Below, in pieces: positions 21,934 through 61,451 of a stretch of DNA of 64,000 nucleotides. Below the pieces are notes generated by a model. It made no database searches. It was given only the letters and a program-made list of their open reading frames with translations, and had not been told where the DNA came from. A program made the translations under genes and the position numbers. Source of the stretch: Omnitrophica bacterium GWA2_41_15 (GTDB lineage: Bacteria > Omnitrophota > Gorgyraeia > Ghiorseimicrobiales > Ghiorseimicrobiaceae); assembly GCA_919902105.1 (NCBI GenBank), contig CAKKQO010000017.1, forward strand, positions 3,305-67,304, written 5' to 3'. The first letter of the stretch is position 1. Each line of letters opens with the position of its first letter.

Positions 21934-22047
21934 ATGAAGCCACAAGTTAGGGAACGTAAGTCGACATAACTTGTCTGGCTGAATTTATCCCGCCGAATAC
22001 CATAAAATTCTCTATTGATAATTTTATGGTATCTTATGAGGCGGGAG
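21934..22047 (-). repeat. Nested-hairpin boundary element (BH family), copy G, stop-codon-abutting orientation
   Basis: TAAATGAAG + AGCCACAAGTTA...TAACTTGTCTGGCT hairpin + GAATTT + ATCCCGCC[ACCATAAAATT...AATTTTATGGT]GGCGGGA. Confidence 0.7.
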
Positions 22048-24626: not shown

Positions 24627-24767
24627 CTCCGCCTCATAGGATGCCCTAAAATTTTCGTGCGATAATTTTAGGGCATTCGGCGGAGTTAATCCCGCGAGAA
24701 GCGGGATCAATTCCGGCATATAACTTATGAGCGCTTCGTTCCATAAGTTATGCCGTCATTGAGGAGG
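24627..24767 (+). repeat. Nested-hairpin boundary element (BH family), copy A, start-codon-abutting orientation
   Basis: CTCCGCC[ATGCCCTAAAATT...AATTTTAGGGCAT]GGCGGAG, ATCCCGC-gagaa-GCGGGAT, CAATTCC, GGCATATAACTTATG...CATAAGTTATGCC, GTCATTGAGGAGG, then TTG start 24773. Confidence 0.75.
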
Positions 24768-26134: not shown

Positions 26135-28090
26135 ATGGATGCGAAGCTAAAGCGAAACTTTATCTTGCTGGGTCATGCCTCCAGTGGTAAAACTACGCTT
26201 GCGGAAAGCATCCTTTTTCTTTGTCAGGCAACTGTGCGTAAGGGGGATGTGGCAGGAGGGACTACTGCCAGCGACTATAATCCCGACGAGATAGAAAGAA
26301 AAATATCGATTAACTTAAGCCTACTCTTTTGCAATTATAAAGGCGCGAGATTCCAGCTTATCGATACTCCCGGATATGCCGATTTTATCGGAGAAGTAAT
26401 CAGCGGTTTGCGAGCCGTAGACGGCGCAGTGGTAGTAGTAGATTCCTCAAGCGGCATAGAATTAGGCACGGAAAGGGCCTGGGAATTGTTAGATGAACAA
26501 AATATACCCCGGCTTATTTTCATCAATAAATTAGATAAAGAAAATACTAGCGAAGAAAAAATAATTCTTGAGTTTAAAGAGCGGTTTTCTAATAAATGTT
26601 TACCTCTCAAAGCAATAAATAGCCAAGAGATTATTGAAGCGGCGGCTGAGCTCGACGATGCTTTGTTGGAGAAATATCTGGAAGGCAAGGAGTTATCCAG
26701 CGAAGAGGTAAAAGGCGCATTGCATAAGGGGGTTTTATCCGGAAAGATTTTCCCGATAATCTCCGGCTCAGCCTTGCAAGATAAAGGGGTTAAGGAATTG
26801 CTGGATGCCATAATAGATTTCTTGCCCAATCCTTTAGAGCGAGCGCCAATTTTAGTTGCCAGAGCTGATAGCAAAGAAGAAAAAGAGCTTATTTTTGGCG
26901 AGGATAAAAGTTTTTCCGCTTTTGTTTTTAAGACAGTATCCGACCCTTATATCGGGCAACTGACGTTATTAAGGTTATTTTCCGGAAGGCTGGCAGCTAA
27001 TAGCGCTGTTTATAATGCCACTGCCAATATAAGAGAGAGGATAGGTTCTATTTACATGTTGAAAGGAAAAGACCAGACCCTCTTGGATTATGCATCCTGC
27101 GGAGATATCGTAGCGCTGGCAAAGCTTAAGAGTACCCATGCCTCAGACTCATTGACAGACGAGAAAGAAACTTACCTGTTTAAGCCGCTGGTATTGCCTG
27201 AGCCGGTGATGTCTGCATCGATTAAGCCGAAAACCAGGGCTGATGAAGAAAAGATTTCTCTGGCACTGGCAAAGTTGATGGCGGATGATAAAAGCCTAAA
27301 GGTCAGCCGTGATAACCAAACTAAGGAGGAAATTCTCTCCGGCGTAGGAAGCCTGCACTTAGAGGTAATGGTGGCGCGCTTGCGCAGCCGTTTCCATGTA
27401 GATTTAGAGTTAGGCAAGCCCAAAGTCCCTTATAAAGAAACTATTAAAGGCCGCGCTAAGGTTCAAGGAAGATATAAGAGGCAGTCGGGCGGCAGGGGCC
27501 AATACGGCGATGTTTGGATTGAGGTTGAGCCTTTGCCAAAGGGCACAGGAGATTTTGAATTTGTGAATAAGATTTTTGGCGGCGCTATCCCGCGCAATTA
27601 TATTCCGGCGGTAGAAAAAGGAGTGCGCCAAGCTTGTTCTGAGGGAGCAATTGCCGGTTACCCCTTGACGGGACTACGGGTTATTTTGTGCGATGGTTCA
27701 TATCATGCTGTAGATTCTTCAGACATGGCCTTTCAGATTGCCGGAGCAATGGCTTTAAGGAAAGCGGTGCACGAAGCAGCGCCAACTTTACTTGAGCCGA
27801 TTATGGACGTTGAGATCCTAGTTTGTGAAGAATTTATGGGGCAGATTTCAGGAGATGTTAATTCCCGCAGAGGTAAAGTTATGGGGATGGACACGAAAGG
27901 AAAATATCAGGTGATAAAAGCAAGGATTCCTTTGGCAGAGATGTTTCAATATGCTAATGACCTGCGTTCAATGACTGGCGGCCGAGGTACTTATACGATG
28001 CATCTTGCTGATTATGAAGAGGTCCCGCACAAAATCGCCTCAACAATAATTTCTCAATATAGCGCACAAAGACAACAACACGAGGAATAA
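26135..28090 (+). CDS. Elongation factor G paralogue (EF-G2-like)
   Basis: 651 aa. G1 GHASSGKTT (EF-G2-type rather than AHIDAGKTT), DTPGYADF, NKLD, and domain IV/V blocks. Confidence 0.8.
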   Translation: MDAKLKRNFILLGHASSGKTTLAESILFLCQATVRKGDVAGGTTASDYNPDEIERKISINLSLLFCNYKGARFQLIDTPGYADFIGEVISGLRAVDGAVVVVDSSSGIELGTERAWELLDEQNIPRLIFINKLDKENTSEEKIILEFKERFSNKCLPLKAINSQEIIEAAAELDDALLEKYLEGKELSSEEVKGALHKGVLSGKIFPIISGSALQDKGVKELLDAIIDFLPNPLERAPILVARADSKEEKELIFGEDKSFSAFVFKTVSDPYIGQLTLLRLFSGRLAANSAVYNATANIRERIGSIYMLKGKDQTLLDYASCGDIVALAKLKSTHASDSLTDEKETYLFKPLVLPEPVMSASIKPKTRADEEKISLALAKLMADDKSLKVSRDNQTKEEILSGVGSLHLEVMVARLRSRFHVDLELGKPKVPYKETIKGRAKVQGRYKRQSGGRGQYGDVWIEVEPLPKGTGDFEFVNKIFGGAIPRNYIPAVEKGVRQACSEGAIAGYPLTGLRVILCDGSYHAVDSSDMAFQIAGAMALRKAVHEAAPTLLEPIMDVEILVCEEFMGQISGDVNSRRGKVMGMDTKGKYQVIKARIPLAEMFQYANDLRSMTGGRGTYTMHLADYEEVPHKIASTIISQYSAQRQQHEE

Positions 28091-28112: not shown

Positions 28113-28823
28113 ATGGTAAAAATTGGAATATTCGGTTTAGAAAATATTTTTTCCGGCACAAAAGCCGCTGTCGCTGATAAACGCATCGATAAGCTAAAGG
28201 ATTTATTTAAATCCGCCAAAAAAGTCTATATAGAAACAGAGTTAATTTATGAACAAGCAAACCTATCTGAGGCAGACGGAATAATTATAAATAAGGATTC
28301 GAAACTGGATTTAATCTTATCCGACTTAGAGTTTGTCGAAACAAGGTTATCCCGGACAGAAGATAGAGGAGAAAAAGAATTACTCGCTAGATTTAAAATA
28401 AGCTTAGAAAAAGAAGAGTTTCTTTCTTTTGAGCCGTTAAACGATGCCGAGAAAAAGATTATTGCCCCATTCCAGTTGTTCACCATCAGGCCGATATATT
28501 TAGTAGATACAAGTAAAGAAGTGGATAAGGATGCCATTTTACTTAACGCTTATAATGAGTTTGGGTATATTTCTTTTTTTACCGTTGGCGATAAAGATTC
28601 GCATGGCTGGCCGCTAAAAAAAGGTTTGACTGCTTGGGATGCCGCAGGAGTAATCCATTCGGATATCCAGCGCGGCTTTATCCGCGCCGAAGTAGTGCAT
28701 TATGATGATTTAATTAAGGCGGGGCACTTAAACGAGGCGCGCAATAACGGGCTTTTAAAATTAGAAAATAAAGAATATGTAGTGCAAGACGGGGATTGGA
28801 TGCTCTTTAGGTTTAATAAATGA
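28113..28823 (+). CDS. YchF-like protein retaining the C-terminal DUF933/TGS-like domain but lacking a recognisable P-loop
   Basis: 236 aa. The C-terminus FFTVGDKDSHGWPLKKGLTAWDAAGVIHSDIQRGFIRAEV matches the YchF C-terminal domain. The N-terminus KIGIFGLENIFSGTKA replaces GxxGxGKST. Confidence 0.6.
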   Translation: MVKIGIFGLENIFSGTKAAVADKRIDKLKDLFKSAKKVYIETELIYEQANLSEADGIIINKDSKLDLILSDLEFVETRLSRTEDRGEKELLARFKISLEKEEFLSFEPLNDAEKKIIAPFQLFTIRPIYLVDTSKEVDKDAILLNAYNEFGYISFFTVGDKDSHGWPLKKGLTAWDAAGVIHSDIQRGFIRAEVVHYDDLIKAGHLNEARNNGLLKLENKEYVVQDGDWMLFRFNK

Positions 28824-28952: not shown

Positions 28953-29070
28953 TTGCTCCTTGCTTTAACGCTTGTAAATTTCTTCGAAATTTACTACGCA
29001 AGCTTCGGAGTCAATTCAGCCGGATAACTTATGGCATTCTGCGAATTCCATAAGTTATGGCTTCATTGAC
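28953..29070 (+). repeat. BH family copy B2: Q module + terminal hairpin, abutting the purH start
   Basis: The 65-nt Q module (28953-29017) is about 90 percent identical to 42711-42775. Then ATAACTTATGG...CCATAAGTTAT hairpin and TTCATTGAC before ATG 29071. Confidence 0.75.
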
Positions 29071-30633: not shown

Positions 30634-32079
30634 ATGACCCACCCCCAAGCAATCCGCTATTTAGAATCCTTAGTAAACTACGAGAAGAAATCCTATTATC
30701 ATTATAAACACGCATTTAAATTAGAGGGCATAAAGAATTTTTTAGAAATCTTGGGCAATCCGCAGGATTCTCTACGCTGTATTCATATTGCCGGCACTAA
30801 AGGTAAGGGTTCAACCTGTGCCTTTATTGCTCATATCTTAAGAGAGGCCGGACTTTCCGTCGGACTTTATACCTCGCCGCATTTATCGGATTTCCGCGAG
30901 CGCATTAGGATTTTAACCATACCACCTACTACCTATCACCTATCACCTGAATTTGAGGGGATGATTTCAAAACAAGCGTTATCGCGCTTGGCTTGGCGCC
31001 TAAAGCCGACAATAGATAAATTTAACCACAATTCTAAATACGGCCCGCTGACATTTTTTGAAGTTTATACGGCACTCGCCTTTATTTATTTTAAAGAAAA
31101 AAAAGTGGATTTTGCGGTTTTAGAGACGGGTTTGGGCGGAAGATTAGATGCCACAAATGTGATTAATCCTTTAGTCTGCGTAATTACCCCGATAAGTTTA
31201 GAGCATACTCAACTTTTGGGCAATACATTAACGAAAATTGCCCGCGAGAAGGTGGGTATTATCAAGAAGTTTCGCCCCTCGCCCCTCGCCCCTCGCCCCT
31301 CGGTAGTAATCAGCGCGCCGCAGGAGGAAGCAGCAGCTAGGGTGATTAGGGATAGATGTAGAAAAGTTGGCGCTAGATTATATGAAGTAGGGAAGGATAT
31401 AAGATACAAAAAATCCGAAATCCGAAATCCGAAATCCGAAATAAATCTAAAATCCAAAATCAAAAAATTTAAAATCCGCGGAATTTTTAATGAATATAAT
31501 AATTTAAAAATAAAACTTTTAGGTAAGCATCAGCTGGTGAATGCCGCCACGGCAGTGGGGGCAGTTGAGGCGTTAAAAAAATACGGCATTAGTGTAAATA
31601 TCGATGCGATAAGAAAAGGGCTTTATAATACGTTTTGGCCGGGCAGATGCGAAATTGTATCTAAGAAACCGTTAATTGTTTTAGACGGTGCGCAGAATGT
31701 TGCTTCAGCTAAGGCATTAAAAGAAACGATTAAAGAAAATTTTTCCACCGAAGGCGGATCCGCCTCCGGCGGAAAGTATAAAAAGTTAATTCTGGTTTTA
31801 GGGGCTTGTTGCGATAAAGATATTAAGGGAATATGTAATGAGTTGTGCTTGATGGCAGACGAAATCATCTTAACCAAAGCCAAAAACCCGCGGGCGGCGG
31901 AGCCGGAGCATATCAGGGTTCAGGGTTCAGGGTTAAGGGTTAAGGAAAAAATACATTTAACAGAAAATGTAGAGGAAGCGATTCAAAAAGCAGAAGAGCT
32001 TACTAGCAAAGAAGATTTAATCCTGATTACGGGGTCGTTGTTTGTGGTGGCAGAGGCGAGGGAAGTGTTGCAGAAATGA
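30634..32079 (+). CDS. folC: Folylpolyglutamate synthase / dihydrofolate synthase, with several low-complexity in-frame inserts
   Basis: 481 aa. HIAGTKGKGST P-loop, LETGLGGRLDATN, GKHQLVNAATA, LDGAQNV blocks. Start abuts the purH stop. Confidence 0.85.
   Translation: MTHPQAIRYLESLVNYEKKSYYHYKHAFKLEGIKNFLEILGNPQDSLRCIHIAGTKGKGSTCAFIAHILREAGLSVGLYTSPHLSDFRERIRILTIPPTTYHLSPEFEGMISKQALSRLAWRLKPTIDKFNHNSKYGPLTFFEVYTALAFIYFKEKKVDFAVLETGLGGRLDATNVINPLVCVITPISLEHTQLLGNTLTKIAREKVGIIKKFRPSPLAPRPSVVISAPQEEAAARVIRDRCRKVGARLYEVGKDIRYKKSEIRNPKSEINLKSKIKKFKIRGIFNEYNNLKIKLLGKHQLVNAATAVGAVEALKKYGISVNIDAIRKGLYNTFWPGRCEIVSKKPLIVLDGAQNVASAKALKETIKENFSTEGGSASGGKYKKLILVLGACCDKDIKGICNELCLMADEIILTKAKNPRAAEPEHIRVQGSGLRVKEKIHLTENVEEAIQKAEELTSKEDLILITGSLFVVAEAREVLQK
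30923..30950 (+). repeat. Heptanucleotide tandem array in folC (CACCTAT-type, 4 units)
   Basis: CACCTAC TACCTAT CACCTAT CACCTGA. Translated as PTTYHLSP. Confidence 0.85.
31272..31302 (+). repeat. Heptanucleotide tandem array in folC (TCGCCCC x4)
   Basis: TCGCCCC x4 then TCGG. Translated as RPSPLAPRPS. Confidence 0.9.
31411..31480 (+). repeat. Heptanucleotide tandem array in folC (AAATCCG x4 plus degenerate AAAATCC-type units)
   Basis: AAATCCG x4, then AAATAAATCT AAAATCC AAAATCA AAAAATTT AAAATCCGCGG. Translated as KSEIRNPKSEINLKSKIKKFKIRG. Confidence 0.9.
31742..31775. repeat. 34-bp GC-rich palindrome, folC copy (31/34 identical to the mnmE copy)
   Basis: TTTCCACCGAAGGCGGATCCGCCTCCGGCGGAAA. 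Two A-C mismatches in the stem. Translated as STEGGSASGGK. Confidence 0.85.
31923..31957 (+). repeat. Heptanucleotide tandem array in folC (TCAGGGT x3, TAAGGGT, TAAGGAA)
   Basis: Direct reading. Translated as RVQGSGLRVKE. Confidence 0.9.
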
Positions 32080-33611: not shown

Positions 33612-35099
33612 ATGATTGATACAAGGTTTAATCTAACCGACACAATCGCGGCGATGGGGACGGGGCTAGGGGAAGCCGGTATCGGAATTGTGCGCATTAG
33701 TGGAAAAGATGCGCTAAAGATTGCCGATAAGATTTTTGTTGGTAAAGACGGTAACAAACCGTCGCAATTTAAAACATATACGCTGCATTATGGGTGGATT
33801 GTGAATAGTCCACAGTCCATAGTCCGTAGTCCACAGAAAAAAAAGAAGAAACTACCGACTACCGACTACCGACTACCGACTAATATTATCGATGAAGTGC
33901 TTTTGACGGTAATGCGCGCGCCCAAGAGTTATACTAAGGAAGATGTAGTGGAGATAAATTGCCATGGAGGGATTGTGGCAATGCGGGCGGTATTAGATTT
34001 GGTTTTGGCGAATGGGGCGCGCCTTGCCTCTGGCGGTGAATTTACCAAGCGTGCCTTTTTAAACGGAAGGATTGATTTAAATCAGGCAGAGGCAGTTCTG
34101 GATATAATTCGCGCCAAAACAGATAGTGCGCTTAAAATAGGGACAGAGCAGTTAAGAGGGATATTGTCTTTGCAAATAAATAAACTGCATAAGGATTTGT
34201 TAGGCGTACTTACGATATTAGAAGCAAATATTGATTTTCCCGATGAAGAAATTGGCGCGGTTAATTTAAAAGAGGTTAATAAAAAGCTCAAGACCACAAA
34301 GAATAAACTAAAAGATATTGTAGATTTGGCAAAGCGCGGGCAAGTGCTGCGCGATGGTATTGGCGCGGTTATCTGCGGCAGGCCCAATGTGGGCAAATCC
34401 TCGCTTTTGAATGCGCTCTTAAGAAGGGAGCGCTCTATCGTTAGCCCGGTTGCCGGCACTACCCGTGACACAATAGAGGAAATTATCGATATAAAAGGCA
34501 TTCCAATTAGGATTGTAGATACTGCAGGAATTATTGAGCCGCGGGATTTAGTGGAAAAAAAGGCGGTTTCGCGCTCTAAGCGCGTTATTGATCTGGCGGA
34601 TTTGGTGATTTTGCTTTTTGACGGCAGCCAAAAATTAAACAAAGAAGATAGTGCGCTGATTAAAAAATTTCCTCCGAAGGCGGATCCGCCTTCGGAGGAA
34701 AGCAAAAAGCAAGTTATCGCGGTTATAAATAAAATAGACCTAAGGCAAAAAATAAAAAAAGAGAAACTAAATAAAGTATTTGAATGTGTAATTGAGCTTT
34801 CAGCGAAGAAAATAAAGAATATAAATTTATTAGAAGATGCGATTGCGGGTTTGGTGTTTGGCGGAAAAATCAATAAATCCGAGTCTCTACTGGTGAGTAA
34901 TTTAAGGCATATTGAGTTGCTTAGGGGAGCGCAAAAAACTCTTGGCCAGGCCTGCGATTCGCTGGATAATAAAGTGTCTCTTGAATTCATTGCCCAGGAT
35001 ATTAAGGCGGCCTTAGGTTATTTTGATGATATTTTAGGTAAGAAATTTTCCGAAGACCTATTGGATAAGATATTTGGGGAGTTTTGTATCGGTAAATGA
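33612..35099 (+). CDS. mnmE: tRNA modification GTPase MnmE with in-frame repeat inserts
   Basis: 495 aa. DTIAA..T, SYTKEDVVEINCHGG, GRPNVGKSSLLNAL, VAGTTRD, DTAG, C-terminal FCIGK. Confidence 0.85.
   Translation: MIDTRFNLTDTIAAMGTGLGEAGIGIVRISGKDALKIADKIFVGKDGNKPSQFKTYTLHYGWIVNSPQSIVRSPQKKKKKLPTTDYRLPTNIIDEVLLTVMRAPKSYTKEDVVEINCHGGIVAMRAVLDLVLANGARLASGGEFTKRAFLNGRIDLNQAEAVLDIIRAKTDSALKIGTEQLRGILSLQINKLHKDLLGVLTILEANIDFPDEEIGAVNLKEVNKKLKTTKNKLKDIVDLAKRGQVLRDGIGAVICGRPNVGKSSLLNALLRRERSIVSPVAGTTRDTIEEIIDIKGIPIRIVDTAGIIEPRDLVEKKAVSRSKRVIDLADLVILLFDGSQKLNKEDSALIKKFPPKADPPSEESKKQVIAVINKIDLRQKIKKEKLNKVFECVIELSAKKIKNINLLEDAIAGLVFGGKINKSESLLVSNLRHIELLRGAQKTLGQACDSLDNKVSLEFIAQDIKAALGYFDDILGKKFSEDLLDKIFGEFCIGK
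33806..33880 (+). repeat. Two heptanucleotide arrays joined by an A-run inside mnmE (TAGTCCA-type x4, ACTACCG x4)
   Basis: TAGTCCA CAGTCCA TAGTCCG TAGTCCA (33806-33833), A-rich linker, ACTACCG x4 (33851-33878). Translated as SPQSIVRSPQKKKKKLPTTDYRLPTN. Confidence 0.9.
34668..34701. repeat. Perfect 34-bp GC-rich palindrome inside mnmE
   Basis: TTTCCTCCGAAGGCGGATCCGCCTTCGGAGGAAA. Translated as FPPKADPPSEE. Confidence 0.9.
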
Positions 35100-35204
35100 A
35101 GACATAACTTATGGAGCGATAGCGAACATAAGTTATCTGTCTGAATTTATCCCGAAGCGTGTGCAGGAAATTTCAAAGAAATTTCCAAACGCTTACGCAA
35201 GGGA
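35095..35204 (-). repeat. BH family copy F, stop-codon-abutting orientation
   Basis: AAATGAA (the TGA is the mnmE stop) + GACATAACTTATG...CATAAGTTATCTGTC + TGAATTT + ATCCCGAAGCGT[GGAAATTTC-aaa-GAAATTTCC]ACGCTT..GGGA. Confidence 0.7.
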
Positions 35205-40497: not shown

Positions 40498-41130
40498 ATG
40501 GCGGAAATTGGGAGGGCGAGCAAAATGAAAGGGAAGACGGAAATATTTGTTTTAATCATAATCTTCCTCTGCGGCTTGGCAGGCTTTTCTTTATATAAGT
40601 ACGCAGGGATAAATATAGATTTAGGCCGCGAGAAGAAGCAGTTGATAGAGTTAGAAGCAAGAAATAATGCAATAACTCAAGAATTAGGAGAACAGAAAGT
40701 GCGCCTTAGCCAAGTAAACGAGGAGAAGAAAAACCTTGAAGAAGAAGTAACTCTCGGCAGGCAAAATTTAGGCCAGCTGAAGCTAGAATTAGCGGATAGC
40801 CGCAAGTCACTGGCAAGTTTACAAAGGACGGTCGAAGAATTAACTGCCGTTAATCAGAATTTAAATCAGGAACAGGCTGCTCTAAAGGCAAAAATCGAAG
40901 AATTAACCAGCCGAAAAAATACTTTAGAGGCGAAGATAAGTTCTGTAGAAGAACTTAAACAGATGTTGAAAGATTTAATAAAGTCAAAAAGAACCCAGCG
41001 CCACAGGAAGGCGAGAGCAAAGATAAACACAGAACAAGAATCAAAAGATAAAAACCATGGTTATATCATTTATCAGGGAAAACCTACCTTTAAGCCTAAG
41101 ATTTCTATACAGGTAAGACCCGTCCTTTAA
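40498..41130 (+). CDS. Membrane-anchored coiled-coil protein
   Basis: 210 aa. One TM helix, then a long heptad-rich segment (LEEEV..LKLELADSRKSLASLQ..). The start could be ATG 40525. Confidence 0.4.
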   Translation: MAEIGRASKMKGKTEIFVLIIIFLCGLAGFSLYKYAGINIDLGREKKQLIELEARNNAITQELGEQKVRLSQVNEEKKNLEEEVTLGRQNLGQLKLELADSRKSLASLQRTVEELTAVNQNLNQEQAALKAKIEELTSRKNTLEAKISSVEELKQMLKDLIKSKRTQRHRKARAKINTEQESKDKNHGYIIYQGKPTFKPKISIQVRPVL

Positions 41131-41216
41131 AGGTATCAGGACGGTCTACCCTTGTAGGGTAAGACCCGTCCTTTAAAGGTATCAGGACGGTCTACCCTTG
41201 TAGGGTAATACCCGCC
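41112..41216 (+). repeat. 46-nt tandem duplication (2.3 copies) spanning the gene end; each unit forms a hairpin
   Basis: GGTAAGACCCGTCCTTTAAAGGTATCAGGACGGTCTACCCTTGTAG at 41112 and 41158, with a partial third copy. Contains AGACC(C)GTCCT/AGGACGGTCT and TACCC/GGGTA stems and a GTAG motif. Confidence 0.85.
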
Positions 41217-42710: not shown

Positions 42711-42826
42711 TGCTCCTTGCTTGAGCGCTAGTAAATTTCTTACGAAATTTACTACGCAAGCTGCGGAGTCAATTCGCGCAAAATAATTTACATCAGCTTC
42801 GCTTCTGTAAATTATGCGCTCATTGA
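42711..42826 (+). repeat. BH family copy C: Q module + terminal hairpin, abutting the accA start
   Basis: Q module 42711-42775, GCGCAAAATAATTTACA...TGTAAATTATGCGC hairpin, then TCATTGA directly fused to ATG 42827. Confidence 0.75.
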
Positions 42827-46147: not shown

Positions 46148-46269
46148 CCTCCTCAATGACGACACGACTTATGGAAATCGTAGATTGATATAAGTCGTAT
46201 GTCGGAATTGATACCGAAAGCTGCGATAAAAATTTGGAACAAATTTTTGAAGCGTTTTACTTTCGGTAT
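46148..46269 (-). repeat. BH family copy E (minus orientation), abutting the rpmA start
   Basis: On the - strand: ATACCGAAAG[...AAAAATTT..AAATTTTT...]CTTTCGGTAT, CAATTCC, GACATACGACTTAT...ATAAGTCGTGTC, GTCATTGAGGAGG, 8 nt, ATG. Confidence 0.75.
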
Positions 46270-54898: not shown

Positions 54899-55393
54899 AT
54901 GGCGAATTTTTCTTTTGATATTGTTTCAGAAGTAGATATGCAGGAAGTGGATAACGCCATAAATCAGGCCAAAAAAGAGCTTGTCCAGCGCTATGATTTT
55001 AAGGGCAGTAAGTCTTCGATTGAATTTGACCGTAGCGAAAAAAAATTGACCCTAATCGGAGATGATGATTTTAAACTGCGCGCCTTAAGGGATATTTTAG
55101 CAGGGCGCCTTGCCAAAAGAGGAGTCTCGTTTAAATTTCTTACTTTTAAAGAGCCGGAAAAGGCATTTGAGGGGACCTTGCGCCAGCAGGTGGAAATTGT
55201 AAGCGGCATAGACAAAGAAAAAGCCAGAGATTTAAATAAGATTATAAAGGAGTTAGGGCTAAAGGTGCAGACGCAGATTGAGGGAGAAAAAATCCGGGTA
55301 ATATCAGCAAAAAAAGACGACTTGCAGACAGTGATTGCGCATTTAAGAAGCATTGATTTTCCGCTCCCGCTTTCCTTTTGTAATTATAGGTAA
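54899..55393 (+). CDS. YajQ family nucleotide-binding protein (UPF0234)
   Basis: 164 aa. SFDIVSEVDMQEVDNAINQAKKE...RYDFKGS pattern is diagnostic of YajQ. Confidence 0.8.
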   Translation: MANFSFDIVSEVDMQEVDNAINQAKKELVQRYDFKGSKSSIEFDRSEKKLTLIGDDDFKLRALRDILAGRLAKRGVSFKFLTFKEPEKAFEGTLRQQVEIVSGIDKEKARDLNKIIKELGLKVQTQIEGEKIRVISAKKDDLQTVIAHLRSIDFPLPLSFCNYR

Positions 55394-55397
55394 GCCT

Positions 55398-57833
55398 ATG
55401 CAATACGATTTTTCCCAAATAGAAGCTAAATGGCAGAAGTTCTGGCAGAAAAACAAGAGCTTTCGCGCCGCCATCGATAAAACCCGCAAAAAGTTTTACT
55501 GCCTTGAGATGTTTCCTTATCCCTCAGGTAGGATACATATGGGCCATGTGCGTAATTATACTATCGGTGATGTAATTGCCCGCTATAAGTGGATGCAGGG
55601 TTTTAATGTGCTGCATCCAATGGGCTTTGACGCCTTTGGCCAGCCGGCAGAAAACGCCGCGATAAAGAATAATTCCGACCCCAAAGAATGGACCTATAAA
55701 TGCATAGATTGGATGAAGGCTCAACTTAAGAAGATGGGGTTTTCCTATGATTGGGAAAGGGAAGTTGTGACCTGTGGCCCCGCATATTATCGCTTCAACC
55801 AGTGGATATTTTTAAAGATGCTCGAGCGCGGGCTTGCTTATAAGAAGGCATCAACCGTTAACTGGTGCCCGAGCTGCGAGACAACGCTCGCCAATGAAGA
55901 AGTTATTGACGGCGCATGCTGGCGCTGCAAGAACGCTGTAGCCCAAAAAGATTTAGAGCAGTGGTACCTTAAAATTACCGCCTATCAGGAAAGGTTATTG
56001 GAAGATTTAAAGCAATTAGCGCATTGGCCCGAACAAGTAATTGCGATGCAAGAGAATTGGATAGGCAAGAGCTCCGGGTGCGAAATTTATTTTAAGCTTC
56101 GCGATAGCGGGGAGATTATCCCGGTTTTTACCACCCGCGCAGACACTATTTTTGGCGTAACTTATATCGTGCTGGCGCCGGAGCATACAATAATATCAAA
56201 AATTTCTGCCGAAGGCGGAAAAGGCCATATATCAAACCTCAAAGAAGTTGAGCAATATATTGAAGCAGCGAAAAAGAAAACAAAATTAGAAAGAATTGAA
56301 AGAGATAAAACCGGCATACAGTTAAAAGGTATTACAGCCATAAACCTGGTAAACAACGAAGAAATACCTGTTTTTATTGCCGACTATGTGCTTATGGAAT
56401 ATGGCACCGGCGCAATTATGGCTGTCCCTACGCACGACCAGCGGGATTTTCTCTTTGCCAAAGAGCATAATCTGCCGATGCGGATTGTAATTCAGGCTCC
56501 AGGCTCCAGGCTGCAAGCTCCAAGCGAAATGAAAGAAGCATACGAGGGCGATGGGGTGCAAGTTAATTCTGGAGAATTTGACGGTTTACCTAACCAAGAA
56601 GCGAAGATAAAGATTGCGCAGTGGATAGAAGATAAGGGTATGGGAAAAATCTCCACCCAATGGCGCCTAAAGGATTGGCTGATTTCCCGCCAGCGTTATT
56701 GGGGGACACCCATTCCGGTGATTTACTGTCCAAAGTGCGGTATTGTCGGTGTGCCTTACGAAGACCTGCCGGTTGAGTTACCTGAAAAAGTAAAGATTAC
56801 AGGCGTTGGCGGAAGCCCGCTTTCTAAGGTAAAGGAATTTGTTGTGGTAAAATGCCCGAAATGTAGCGGCCGCGCCCTTCGGGAAACTGATACTATGGCG
56901 ACTTTTATTGATTCTTCGTGGTATTTCTTAAGATACTGCTCGCCGGATTTTGACAAGGCGCCGTTTGATAAAGACGAGGCGGCCTATTGGATGAAGGTGG
57001 ATCAGTATATCGGCGGCATTGAGCATGCGGTCCTGCATTTATTATATTCGCGTTTTTTTACCAAATTTTTTAAGGATTTAGGGATGCTTGATTTTTCCGC
57101 CGAAGGCGGAGATGAGCCGTTTGATAAATTGCTTACCCAGGGGATGGTGCTTAAAGACGGCGAGGTAATGTCAAAATCACGCGGCAATATAGTGGATCCG
57201 GATGAGATTATTAATAAATATGGCGCAGACACCCTGCGGCTTTTTATTCTTTTTGCCGCACCACCCGAAGCGGAACTTGAATGGAACGATACAGCCATAG
57301 ACGGCTCTTTTAAATTTTTAATGCGCATCTTTCGCCTTTTAGAAAAAGCCGCTGATAAAACTCCGAGCGCCGAACTCTTGCGCCGCCTGCATAGTACGAT
57401 TAAAAAAGTTACTGAAGATATGGAGGGCGGTTTTAAGTTTAACACTGCGATTAGCGCAATTATGGAATTAGTCAACGAAATCTATAAAAGTGATTCCGTA
57501 AACAAGGAAATTCTAAAGACGCTTACGATTTTAATCTCGCCGTTTGTCCCGCATATGGCAGAAGAGATGTGGCAGGCACTCGGTGCAAAAGAAAGCATCT
57601 TAAAAGTCCGCTGGCCTGAGTTTAAGCCTGAGTTTTTAAAATTAGACAAAGTTACGCTGGTTGTGCAGATTAACGGCAAGGTGCGCGAAAAAATAGAAGC
57701 AGAAGTTGATATAGATAAAGAAAGCCTAAAAGAATTAGTTTTAGCCAGCAATACTGTAAAGAAATGGATTGAAAATAAGCCGGTCAAAAATTTTGTAATT
57801 GTGCCGAATAAATTAGTAAATATCGTAGTTTAA
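55398..57833 (+). CDS. leuS: Leucyl-tRNA synthetase
   Basis: ATG 55398. FPYPSGRIHMGHVRNY (HIGH), KMSKSRGN-type VMSKSRGN (KMSKS), and CP1/zinc motifs. Confidence 0.9.
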   Translation: MQYDFSQIEAKWQKFWQKNKSFRAAIDKTRKKFYCLEMFPYPSGRIHMGHVRNYTIGDVIARYKWMQGFNVLHPMGFDAFGQPAENAAIKNNSDPKEWTYKCIDWMKAQLKKMGFSYDWEREVVTCGPAYYRFNQWIFLKMLERGLAYKKASTVNWCPSCETTLANEEVIDGACWRCKNAVAQKDLEQWYLKITAYQERLLEDLKQLAHWPEQVIAMQENWIGKSSGCEIYFKLRDSGEIIPVFTTRADTIFGVTYIVLAPEHTIISKISAEGGKGHISNLKEVEQYIEAAKKKTKLERIERDKTGIQLKGITAINLVNNEEIPVFIADYVLMEYGTGAIMAVPTHDQRDFLFAKEHNLPMRIVIQAPGSRLQAPSEMKEAYEGDGVQVNSGEFDGLPNQEAKIKIAQWIEDKGMGKISTQWRLKDWLISRQRYWGTPIPVIYCPKCGIVGVPYEDLPVELPEKVKITGVGGSPLSKVKEFVVVKCPKCSGRALRETDTMATFIDSSWYFLRYCSPDFDKAPFDKDEAAYWMKVDQYIGGIEHAVLHLLYSRFFTKFFKDLGMLDFSAEGGDEPFDKLLTQGMVLKDGEVMSKSRGNIVDPDEIINKYGADTLRLFILFAAPPEAELEWNDTAIDGSFKFLMRIFRLLEKAADKTPSAELLRRLHSTIKKVTEDMEGGFKFNTAISAIMELVNEIYKSDSVNKEILKTLTILISPFVPHMAEEMWQALGAKESILKVRWPEFKPEFLKLDKVTLVVQINGKVREKIEAEVDIDKESLKELVLASNTVKKWIENKPVKNFVIVPNKLVNIVV
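56203..56221 (+). repeat. GC-rich mini-hairpin TTTCTGCC-GAA-GGCGGAAA inside leuS
   Basis: Direct reading. Translated as SAEGGK. Confidence 0.6.
56493..56527 (+). repeat. Heptanucleotide tandem array in leuS (CAGGCTC-type, 5 units)
   Basis: CAGGCTC CAGGCTC CAGGCTG CAAGCTC CAAGCGA. Translated as QAPGSRLQAPSE. Confidence 0.85.
57094..57110 (+). repeat. GC-rich mini-hairpin TTTCCGCC-GAA-GGCGGA inside leuS
   Basis: Direct reading. Translated as FSAEGGD. Confidence 0.6.
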
Positions 57834-61370: not shown

Positions 61371-61451
61371 TTGAGGCCACAACTTATGGAGCGAATGCGC
61401 TCATAAGTTGTATGGCCGAAATAATCCCGCGGATAGTTTACGAAGCGGGAT
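61371..61451 (-). repeat. BH family copy H
   Basis: TTATTGAG + GGCCACAACTTATG...CATAAGTTGTATGGCC + GAAATAA + TCCCGC-ggatagtttacgaa-GCGGGA. Confidence 0.7.

Follow-up and report, generated by a model that had tools for sequence, protein, structure and literature searches.

How can a housekeeping gene carry several tandem repeats whose unit is not a multiple of three? The question is raised by folC in a 64,000-nucleotide (nt) stretch of the genome of Omnitrophica bacterium GWA2_41_15 (contig CAKKQO010000017.1, positions 3,305 to 67,304), hereafter the window. A preliminary description, made from the letters alone, reported short head-to-tail arrays of 7-nt units inside this gene. We find that such arrays occupy four sites in folC and further sites in mnmE and leuS, that related genomes carry arrays of unrelated units at the same folC sites, and that the length added to the protein follows the arithmetic of three units. 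We consider it somewhat better than even, at a probability of roughly 0.55, that the arrays are slippage-prone, non-triplet microsatellites, rebuilt time and again in dispensable loops under a filter of selection on the reading frame.

Heptamer arrays lie in frame in three housekeeping genes

The host belongs to Candidatus Omnitrophota and is not a cyanobacterium; its FolC is 100% identical to a protein from a Candidatus Omnitrophota metagenome-assembled genome. Using Tandem Repeats Finder, we identified five period-7 arrays at four sites in folC, two arrays in mnmE, and one in leuS. All eight lie in coding sequence on the + strand and are built from seven different units, none of which is reused.

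The folC gene (30634-32079, + strand; TIGR01499, E 5.2e-109) encodes 481 amino acids (aa) and hosts one palindrome in addition to its five arrays. At site 1 (30923-30948), 3.7 copies of CACCTAT/TCACCTA with 84% matches code for part of TIPPTTYHLSP (aa 95-105). Site 2 (31272-31302) consists of 4.4 copies of TCGCCCC with 100% matches and codes for FRPSPLAPRPS between GIIK and VVISAPQ. Site 3 holds two arrays, 4.6 copies of AAATCCG (31411-31442, 100% matches) and 4.7 copies of degenerate AAATCTA/AAAATCC units (31443-31476, 75% matches). At site 4 (31913-31945) three copies of TCAGGGT are followed by TTAAGGG-type units (4.7 copies in all, 96% matches); the array codes for IRVQGSGLRVK and has its 3' end near 31945-31950. 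The coordinates in the preliminary description agree with ours at sites 2 and 3, but the start of site 4 is 31913 instead of 31923, and the first array contains mismatches. As had been stated, the 481-codon open reading frame (ORF) stays open and codes for the quoted peptides, and the arrays are in frame between conserved FolC blocks. Solved FolC structures do not have the segments that the arrays insert.

The same design, also claimed earlier for mnmE and leuS, was found in both. In mnmE (33612-35099, + strand; 495 aa; TIGR00450, E 3.6e-114), which likewise hosts a palindrome, an AGTCCAC-type array at 33805-33836 contains 2.1 copies of the 14-mer ATAGTCCACAGTCC, and an array at 33851-33882 consists of 4.6 perfect copies of ACTACCG. 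The single array of leuS (55353-57833, + strand; 826 aa; TIGR00396, E 0) is at 56493-56522; its 4.3 copies of CAGGCTC (86% matches) code for QAPGSRLQAP in the editing-domain region.

These arrays are not due to chance. Exact periodic runs in the window number seven at period 7, one at period 6, and none at periods 8 to 12. Four-unit stretches whose lag matches reach 80% or more occur seven times at lag 7 versus 0 times at lags 8 to 12, and 20 first-order Markov simulations yielded none at lag 7. A single 1.45-kb gene of the 64-kb window contains five of the eight arrays (binomial P ~3e-7, by our own arithmetic). The period-7 excess that the preliminary description implied is thus present in the window, relative to simulation, and it is also present in a 537-kb sample of the clade.

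Two structural accounts of the arrays were rejected. A G-quadruplex account (PMC4692102) would apply only to TCGCCCC, on its antisense strand, and to TCAGGGT with its GGG runs, as the other units are without G runs. A hairpin or terminator account does not describe arrays that are direct repeats; an inverted-repeat scan gave only separate 34-nt palindromes.

Relatives share the array sites but not the units

To place the window gene among its relatives, we collected about 45 folC loci of the clade (three syntenic contigs, L081 to L083, five genome contigs, and 34 metagenome contigs). The orthologues are 442 to 515 aa long and, in protein and codon alignments, differ mainly at window residues 94-106, 211-223, 257-283, and 427-440. 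Tandem Repeats Finder detected 39 period-7, 9 period-14, 11 period-8, and 2 period-16 arrays in 36 orthologues, nearly all of them at the four sites and with units unrelated between genomes. The earlier picture of four independent colonizations of one folC gene is replaced by one in which the four sites are common to most of the related folC genes examined and the arrays at them are replaced repeatedly, with new units of 8 nt as well as of 7 nt.

Site 1 illustrates the diversity: its units include CACCTAT, CCGAGCC, AGGCGCA, AGTACCG, AACCGAC, GTCACAA, AGGTGTC, the 16-mer AAAGAGTCAGAGAGTC, and 8-mers. The loop itself is missing at this site in Thermotoga maritima FolC (1o5z) and in the distant Omnitrophota loci L008 and L113. 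At site 4, L081 has GCAGGCT and L082 has GCTGCAA. The loop of mnmE between HYG and IIDEV behaves likewise, being an array site whose units vary by genome, and a loop of purH carries the same kind of array in three loci.

Turnover at the sites is much faster than in the backbone. The window and L081 are ~86-94% identical in nucleotide sequence over their shared region, and BLAST alignments between them break at sites 2 and 3. Outside the sites their folC genes are 85% identical, whereas sites 1 to 3 are only 34-45% identical, the same level as unrelated 36-mers, for which 47 +/- 5% is expected. The pair L093 and L095 has a backbone that is 91% identical and unrelated sequences at sites 1 and 2. 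Gradual drift with concerted evolution was therefore rejected as the sole account: identity at the sites is at the random level despite backbones that are 85-91% identical. Some pairs do share a unit with one substitution in every copy (TCGCCCC/TCGTCCC and GCAGGCT/GCAAGCT), and the identical substitution in all copies indicates that homogenization occurs too; for these pairs concerted drift does hold.

Loop lengths follow a three-unit rule

The frame constraint is most evident in the site 2 loop (K211-V225). This loop is 4-5 aa long in 13 array-free orthologues. With 7-mers or 14-mers it is 12 aa long in 8 of 10 orthologues and 13 aa long in the window and L082, and with 8-mers it is 13 aa long in 4 of 5. 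These lengths imply that an array equals the resident sequence plus exactly three units, the smallest gain that is neutral for the frame.

Other loops are also longer where arrays occur. The site 3 loop has 21 aa in 22 orthologues versus 35 aa in the window, a gain of 14 aa from two arrays, and the site 4 loop has 27 aa in the window versus 23 aa in most orthologues. In mnmE, the HYG-IIDEV loop has 7 aa in the five shortest, array-free relatives (L002, L003, L088, L094, and L096) versus 30 aa in the window, and the MnmE N-domain is ~26 residues longer than the Pfam model. The leuS array aligns with a loop of Thermus thermophilus LeuS and is longer by only 2 residues, so it is approximately an overwrite and not a long insertion.

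Some array sequences suggest local origins. AAGTGTC of L083 and AAAGTGTC of L088 resemble the products of a single seed from which windows of 7 and 8 nt were amplified. In many arrays the last, incomplete unit matches the conserved flank; for example, GTTAGCCC arrays end in the flank GTTAATT, and CCGAGCC runs into CCCGAG.

Array peptides are polar coil at fold-compatible positions

An AlphaFold model of FolC built from 37 orthologues has a mean predicted local distance difference test (pLDDT) score of 84.5 and a predicted TM-score (pTM) of 0.88; compared with FolC/FPGS crystal structures, its target-normalized TM-score is 0.84-0.89. In the model the array peptides are coil with lowered pLDDT, namely 69 at aa 101-110, 65 at aa 211-220, 53 at aa 261-270, and 68 at aa 431-440, with values <50 at aa 264-272 of site 3. 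The alignment with T. maritima FolC 1o5z has a gap at every array site. The arrays are in-frame insertions at fold-compatible positions of housekeeping proteins, and alignment and model together suggest that these positions are dispensable surface loops.

Hydrophobic residues account for 18% of the peptides versus 33% of the remaining host protein sequence, and Q, S, P, R, T, and H are over-represented. In the DNA, T makes up 17% of the coding strand of the arrays versus 34% of intergenic arrays.

Polar peptides rich in P, S, Q, and R at conserved loop positions might suggest that selection acts on the protein, with 7-aa periodic peptides that work as linkers or form interaction surfaces, the DNA period being only a by-product. 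We consider this very unlikely. The repeats are perfect in DNA with synonymous positions included, and at the same sites the peptide period is 8 aa where the units are octamers. Peptides are unrelated between close relatives, and no conserved peptide motif or structure was seen across the orthologues, many of which are wholly without an insert. The same arrays also occur between genes.

Array size is narrow and folC is a hot spot

In the 537-kb clade sample (Tandem Repeats Finder score of at least 40) we counted 62 arrays of period 7, 19 of period 14, 21 of period 8, 12 of period 16, 11 of period 9, and 0 of period 6; periods 7 and 14 together account for 81. Median size hardly depends on the period: 4.6 copies (32 nt) for period 7, 4.1 copies (33 nt, mode 35-36) for period 8, and 2.2 copies (31 nt) for period 14. 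The lengths of perfect lag-7 runs have two peaks, one at 16-23 nt and the other at 30-37 nt, with no run beyond the second. Roughly 40% of the period-7 arrays have no mismatch, which fits recent formation.

Most arrays (94 of 114, 82%) lie inside ORFs. The remaining 20 are intergenic, indicating that the array-forming process is not tied to coding sequence. Density in folC is 0.98 per kb versus 0.11 per kb in the flanking neighbors. Among the matches listed for outgroup controls, folC genes of other phyla have 3 arrays in 103 genes (0.023 per kb), and the more distant Omnitrophota loci L002, L003, L008, and L113 have no arrays.

Three Chloroflexota folC genes (L058, 10719-10758; L062, 10723-10746; L065, 10738-10766) each have a 7- or 8-nt array at ~nt 720-760, which means that in-gene arrays are not limited to Omnitrophota. 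The spacer between purH and folC carries octamer arrays of the GTTAGCCN/GTTATCCN type in L084 (326-353), L085 (5314-5345), L106 (910-941), and L112 (2981-3018). As the unit of these spacer arrays stays similar across genomes, unlike that of the coding arrays, they may be a binding site.

Units are shared within some genomes. L109 has AACTCCC at folC site 1, at folC site 2, and in mnmE, and its relatives L094 and L096 have AACTCCC at site 1 only. L085 has GGTTCA-type units at four sites. Overall, 8 of 60 within-genome unit pairs are within one mismatch versus 43 of 1425 between-genome pairs (permutation p 0.0014). Such sharing suggests that some copying between arrays also occurs.

From this sharing one might build a different reading, in which ready-made arrays of ~30 nt are copied into permissive sites as mobile or templated cassettes, via a trans-acting template, ectopic conversion, or an unknown enzyme, and slippage is secondary. 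The three identical arrays of L109 and the excess of within-genome sharing would follow, as would the narrow array size whatever the period or location and the arrays that overwrite a loop with no net insertion. Small palindromes that are present or absent among near-identical alleles use the same sites, often inside arrays. About four units are also favored by the intergenic repeats of other bacteria (PMC4692102, PMC2700814), and dispersed families such as (GGGACCG)4 of Geobacter and (GGGAATC)4 of Xanthomonas may spread likewise. The reading fits poorly, however, with the seven different and unrepeated units of the window's genome, and many arrays share bases with their flank, as local amplification predicts. 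The exact gain of 7 or 8 aa is what three units added to one resident copy would give, the arrays have no terminal motif in common, and no candidate enzyme was found among the window ORFs scanned. On balance we regard cassettes as an unlikely explanation.

Frame-broken folC alleles occur in the wild

The preliminary description reasoned that loss of one unit would break the frame, and this is borne out by wild alleles one unit shorter that split folC into two ORFs. The possibility it raised that only frame-preserving variants occur does not hold, as out-of-frame folC alleles were found in two lineages. They came from a search for unit variants in 20 FolC protein clusters at >=90% identity, two of which contain split genes. 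In the first, L146, L147, and L148 (three ENA samples) correspond over 1482 nt to L092 minus one 14-nt unit at site 1. L146 and L147 are otherwise identical to L092 over this length, and L148 differs at one base; the gene is split into ORFs of 107 and 368 aa. In the second, L149 corresponds to L089 minus one 7-nt unit at site 1, with ORFs of 108 and 373 aa.

The breakpoints have a similar layout. In both frame-broken types the upstream ORF stops short of the ATG of a conserved, clade-specific FEGM motif by 0-12 nt, and in L149 its stop codon overlaps the start at this methionine as ATGA. Judged from the sequence, the arrangement could allow reinitiation and a two-piece FolC. The frame-broken gene is the consensus in four assemblies from the two lineages, and the remainder of the gene is intact.

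Out-of-frame alleles are rare, at 2 of roughly 60 alleles examined. A tblastn frame check of the clade loci searched (purH, folC, and mnmE) found no frame-shifted genes beyond the four known loci. Replicate samples of the L081 population showed no unit-number polymorphism, all differences being at a contig end, and the window FolC is one identical sequence on 4 contigs of the protein collection, with no unit-number variant among these. The split alleles indicate that single-unit slips occur and can reach consensus frequency, but are not common.

Could the arrays be contingency loci, selected as reversible switches that turn folC, mnmE, and other genes off and on or split them? Non-triplet repeats in coding sequence are a hallmark of phase variation, and neuO is ON only when the copy number of its heptanucleotide repeat is divisible by three (PMC13001214). 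Frame-broken genes that are the consensus in two lineages and otherwise intact, with an upstream stop so close to the FEGM ATG, are what such switches might leave. Against this, the tracts are short, at 4-5 units versus 3-53 in neuO (PMC13001214), and the hosts are the housekeeping enzymes FolC, MnmE, LeuS, and PurH and not genes for surface structures, restriction-modification, or host interaction. It is hard to see why one gene should have four to five independent switches. Arrays are identical between replicate samples of one population, as is the window FolC across its contigs; the same kind of array is also intergenic; and few alleles are out of frame. We therefore doubt that the arrays are contingency loci. 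If they were, there would be population-level variation in core metabolism of a host-dependent nanobacterium.

An artefact of assembly or sequencing is close to refuted. Short repeats can in principle be miscounted, and L081 is a low-coverage contig. However, the arrays (26-52 nt) are shorter than the reads and the assembly k-mer (contigs are named k141), and >40 contigs, produced by many projects with different assemblers, contain them, in frame save for the four frame-broken loci. Replicate samples give identical arrays, and the same 14-nt deletion appears in three samples.

A proposed slippage-and-filter model for the arrays

We infer that slippage generates the arrays, that selection on the encoded enzyme filters them, and that some units are copied between sites. 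The arrays, with ~4.5 copies and a length of ~30-36 nt, are found in lineage-specific loops within one clade of Candidatus Omnitrophota. The seed would be a local stretch of 7 or 8 nt bounded by a few bases of microhomology, which would be amplified by slipped-strand (reiterative) DNA synthesis. Arrays would later collapse and re-expand, so that the unit may change wholly while the site persists, and occasionally a unit may be copied from another array of the same genome. Loop sites would thus be inherited, and the DNA within them rebuilt repeatedly.

The enzyme would act as a filter in three ways. First, the net change in length would have to be divisible by three; three new copies added to a resident one would give the 4.3-5.3 copies seen. 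Second, the unit would have to be free of stop codons in any of the three reading phases. Third, the peptide would have to be polar enough for a loop. Single-unit slips would continue, giving the frame-broken folC alleles.

Slippage with a filter accounts for the period bias, as that bias would be a mutational property, and for the shared sites, as these would be the places where the protein tolerates anything. It also accounts for the one-plus-three copies, the fast turnover, the intergenic arrays, and the frame-broken alleles.

Several observations weigh against this model. Slippage in place leaves identical units at different sites of one genome unexplained. The slippage steps are inferred, and the account does not explain the preference for 7-8 nt. 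Among the near-identical alleles of the 20 protein clusters, no in-frame three-unit variant was found. The site 3 array of L085 and the leuS array of the window overwrite the loop without lengthening it. Finally, tolerance alone may not explain why array density in folC exceeds that of its neighbors.

A bolder version would have an active, lineage-specific process that rewrites cassettes (four-copy arrays of 7- or 8-nt units with nested mini-palindromes) at fixed, permissive sites of core genes, copies units between sites, and serves as a generator of protein-surface diversity or as an on/off/split switch of folate metabolism and tRNA modification. We consider this improbable. Were the switch version true, translation might stop and then restart at the conserved FEGM methionine to make a two-piece FolC.

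Palindromes and other repeats

Besides the arrays, both folC and mnmE carry an in-frame palindrome of 34 nt. That of folC (31742-31775, + strand; TTTCCACCGAAGGCGGA/TCCGCCTCCGGCGGAAA; FSTEGGSASGGK) is 88% complementary and is not a heptamer array; it makes the protein ~10 aa longer than the 21 orthologues without it, and pLDDT is <50 at aa 372-380. That of mnmE (34668-34701, + strand; TTTCCTCCGAAGGCGGA/TCCGCCTTCGGAGGAAA; FPPKADPPSEES) is perfect and is missing from mnmE of L082 and L083. The two have the common core GGCGGATCCGCC, and each adds ~10 aa relative to orthologues without it. A palindrome of the same type is found at folC site 1 in P0155 and is absent from P0051 of the same 90%-identity cluster, so it looks recently mobile.

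A second mini-palindrome of ~21 nt has the core GCCTGCCGGCAGGC, codes for the peptide C/LPAGRQA, and is also present or absent between near-identical alleles. It was seen at folC site 2 of L093, in the comparison of P0118 with P0144, and in the mnmE loop of L104, L107, and L149. Both kinds of mini-palindrome are repeatedly nested in heptamer or octamer arrays, as if these were a preferred target. At folC site 1 of L100, three copies of a 39-nt unit with the internal hairpin TCCCCGAAGGGGA form a 44-codon insert.

Elsewhere in the window, dispersed intergenic repeats of hairpin type were found at 28954-29017, 42711-42775, 35092-35202, 24702-24755, 21937-21997, 61378-61429, and 46153-46256. They are 75-92% identical, occur in both orientations, and are terminator- or MITE-like (resembling miniature inverted-repeat transposable elements). 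A 46-nt tandem repeat (2.2 copies, 98% identical) at 41112-41214 directly follows ORF 40498-41130.

Gene context

The window has a G+C content of 41%, and all its large genes share one strand. Genes pabB, pabC, folE, and purH are also present. The 30 window ORFs scanned encode ordinary metabolism plus a DnaQ-like exonuclease and a DNA glycosylase; among them there was no transposase, reverse transcriptase, or other candidate repeat-writing enzyme. An Rfam search of the window returned two tRNAs only, with no match at the arrays. Two other genes of the window match their family models only in part: a YchF homologue (28113-28823) has just 236 aa and matches only the C-terminal part of the model, and EF-G (26135-28090) matches in two stretches, with part of the N-terminal third of the model unaligned.

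Implications and comparison with known systems

The arrays represent a natural collision between a strong bias toward tandem duplication of 7-8 nt and the triplet code inside housekeeping genes, and they provide a case in which the frame constraint shapes repeat copy number, as one copy plus three. They illustrate how new protein loops can arise from DNA never selected to code, and they mark insertion-tolerant positions of FolC, MnmE, PurH, and LeuS. Frame-broken folC in the wild, in a putatively host-dependent phylum, raises the question of whether core functions are switched, split, or lost. As strain markers the arrays change extremely fast. Since arrays of many independent origins can be compared here at orthologous sites, they give access to a puzzle of long standing, namely why bacterial repeats favor 7 nt and about four copies.

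A literature search on heptamer repeats in coding genes and on tandem repeats in Omnitrophota found no prior description, in line with the preliminary description, and the in-gene, many-unit, site-conserved form of heptamer repeat appears undescribed. Heptanucleotide repeats as such are familiar. In the summary of Mrazek 2007 given in PMC4679880, they are the most abundant class of long simple sequence repeats in many bacteria, and polymerase slippage is proposed as their origin. The preliminary description placed short tandemly repeated repetitive (STRR) sequences in heterocystous cyanobacteria, mainly outside genes; similar families are known also from Xanthomonas, Geobacter, and Beggiatoaceae, with occasional intragenic copies (PMC4692102, PMC2700814, PMC4679880). 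The Xanthomonas (GGGAATC)n and Nostoc (GGGGAYT)n repeats prefer about four units and are under-represented on the coding strand (PMC4692102), Geobacter metallireducens has four tandem copies of GGGACCG at 49 inter- and intragenic places (PMC2700814), and TAACTGA of Beggiatoaceae is untranslatable in the forward orientation (PMC4679880). The arrays described here resemble STRR-like families in their head-to-tail 7-nt units, their ~four copies, and the excess of period 7 at many loci. They differ in that STRR-like families use one or a few units per genome, whereas the window has seven and only some relatives (L109, L085) reuse a unit. STRR-like families are mainly intergenic, whereas 82% of the arrays here are inside ORFs. 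Here, too, 8-nt units share the sites, and the sites are orthologous across the clade while the units are not.

Small repeated DNA in frame in housekeeping genes at fold-compatible positions also recalls Rickettsia palindromic elements (RPE), which lie in frame in unrelated metabolic and housekeeping genes (PMC10969869), and intragenic MITEs. RPE are palindromes of ~150 bp with a conserved family sequence, whereas our arrays are direct repeats of ~30 nt without a conserved sequence. The 34-nt and ~21-nt palindromes are a closer, though far smaller, analogue of RPE than the arrays.

Proteins of Plasmodium falciparum provide a eukaryotic parallel. Species-specific, fast-evolving repetitive inserts occur there in surface loops of housekeeping proteins and are attributed to slippage and regarded as tolerated, not functional. 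Those inserts are triplet-based with a strong AT bias and are not non-triplet units that change in threes.

The closest coding parallel is neuO of the Escherichia coli K1 phage CUS-3, in which an AAGACTC repeat of 3-53 copies gives full-length protein only at multiples of three and slippage yields out-of-frame alleles in nature (PMC13001214). Common to both are a translated, non-triplet 7-nt repeat, triplet arithmetic, and out-of-frame alleles, here in relatives L146 to L149. The neuO repeat is one long tract of a fixed unit at the 5' end of an accessory, phage-borne surface-modification gene, and its switch is demonstrated. In Omnitrophota, several short tracts lie in internal loops of housekeeping genes, their units change between relatives, and any switching is hypothetical.

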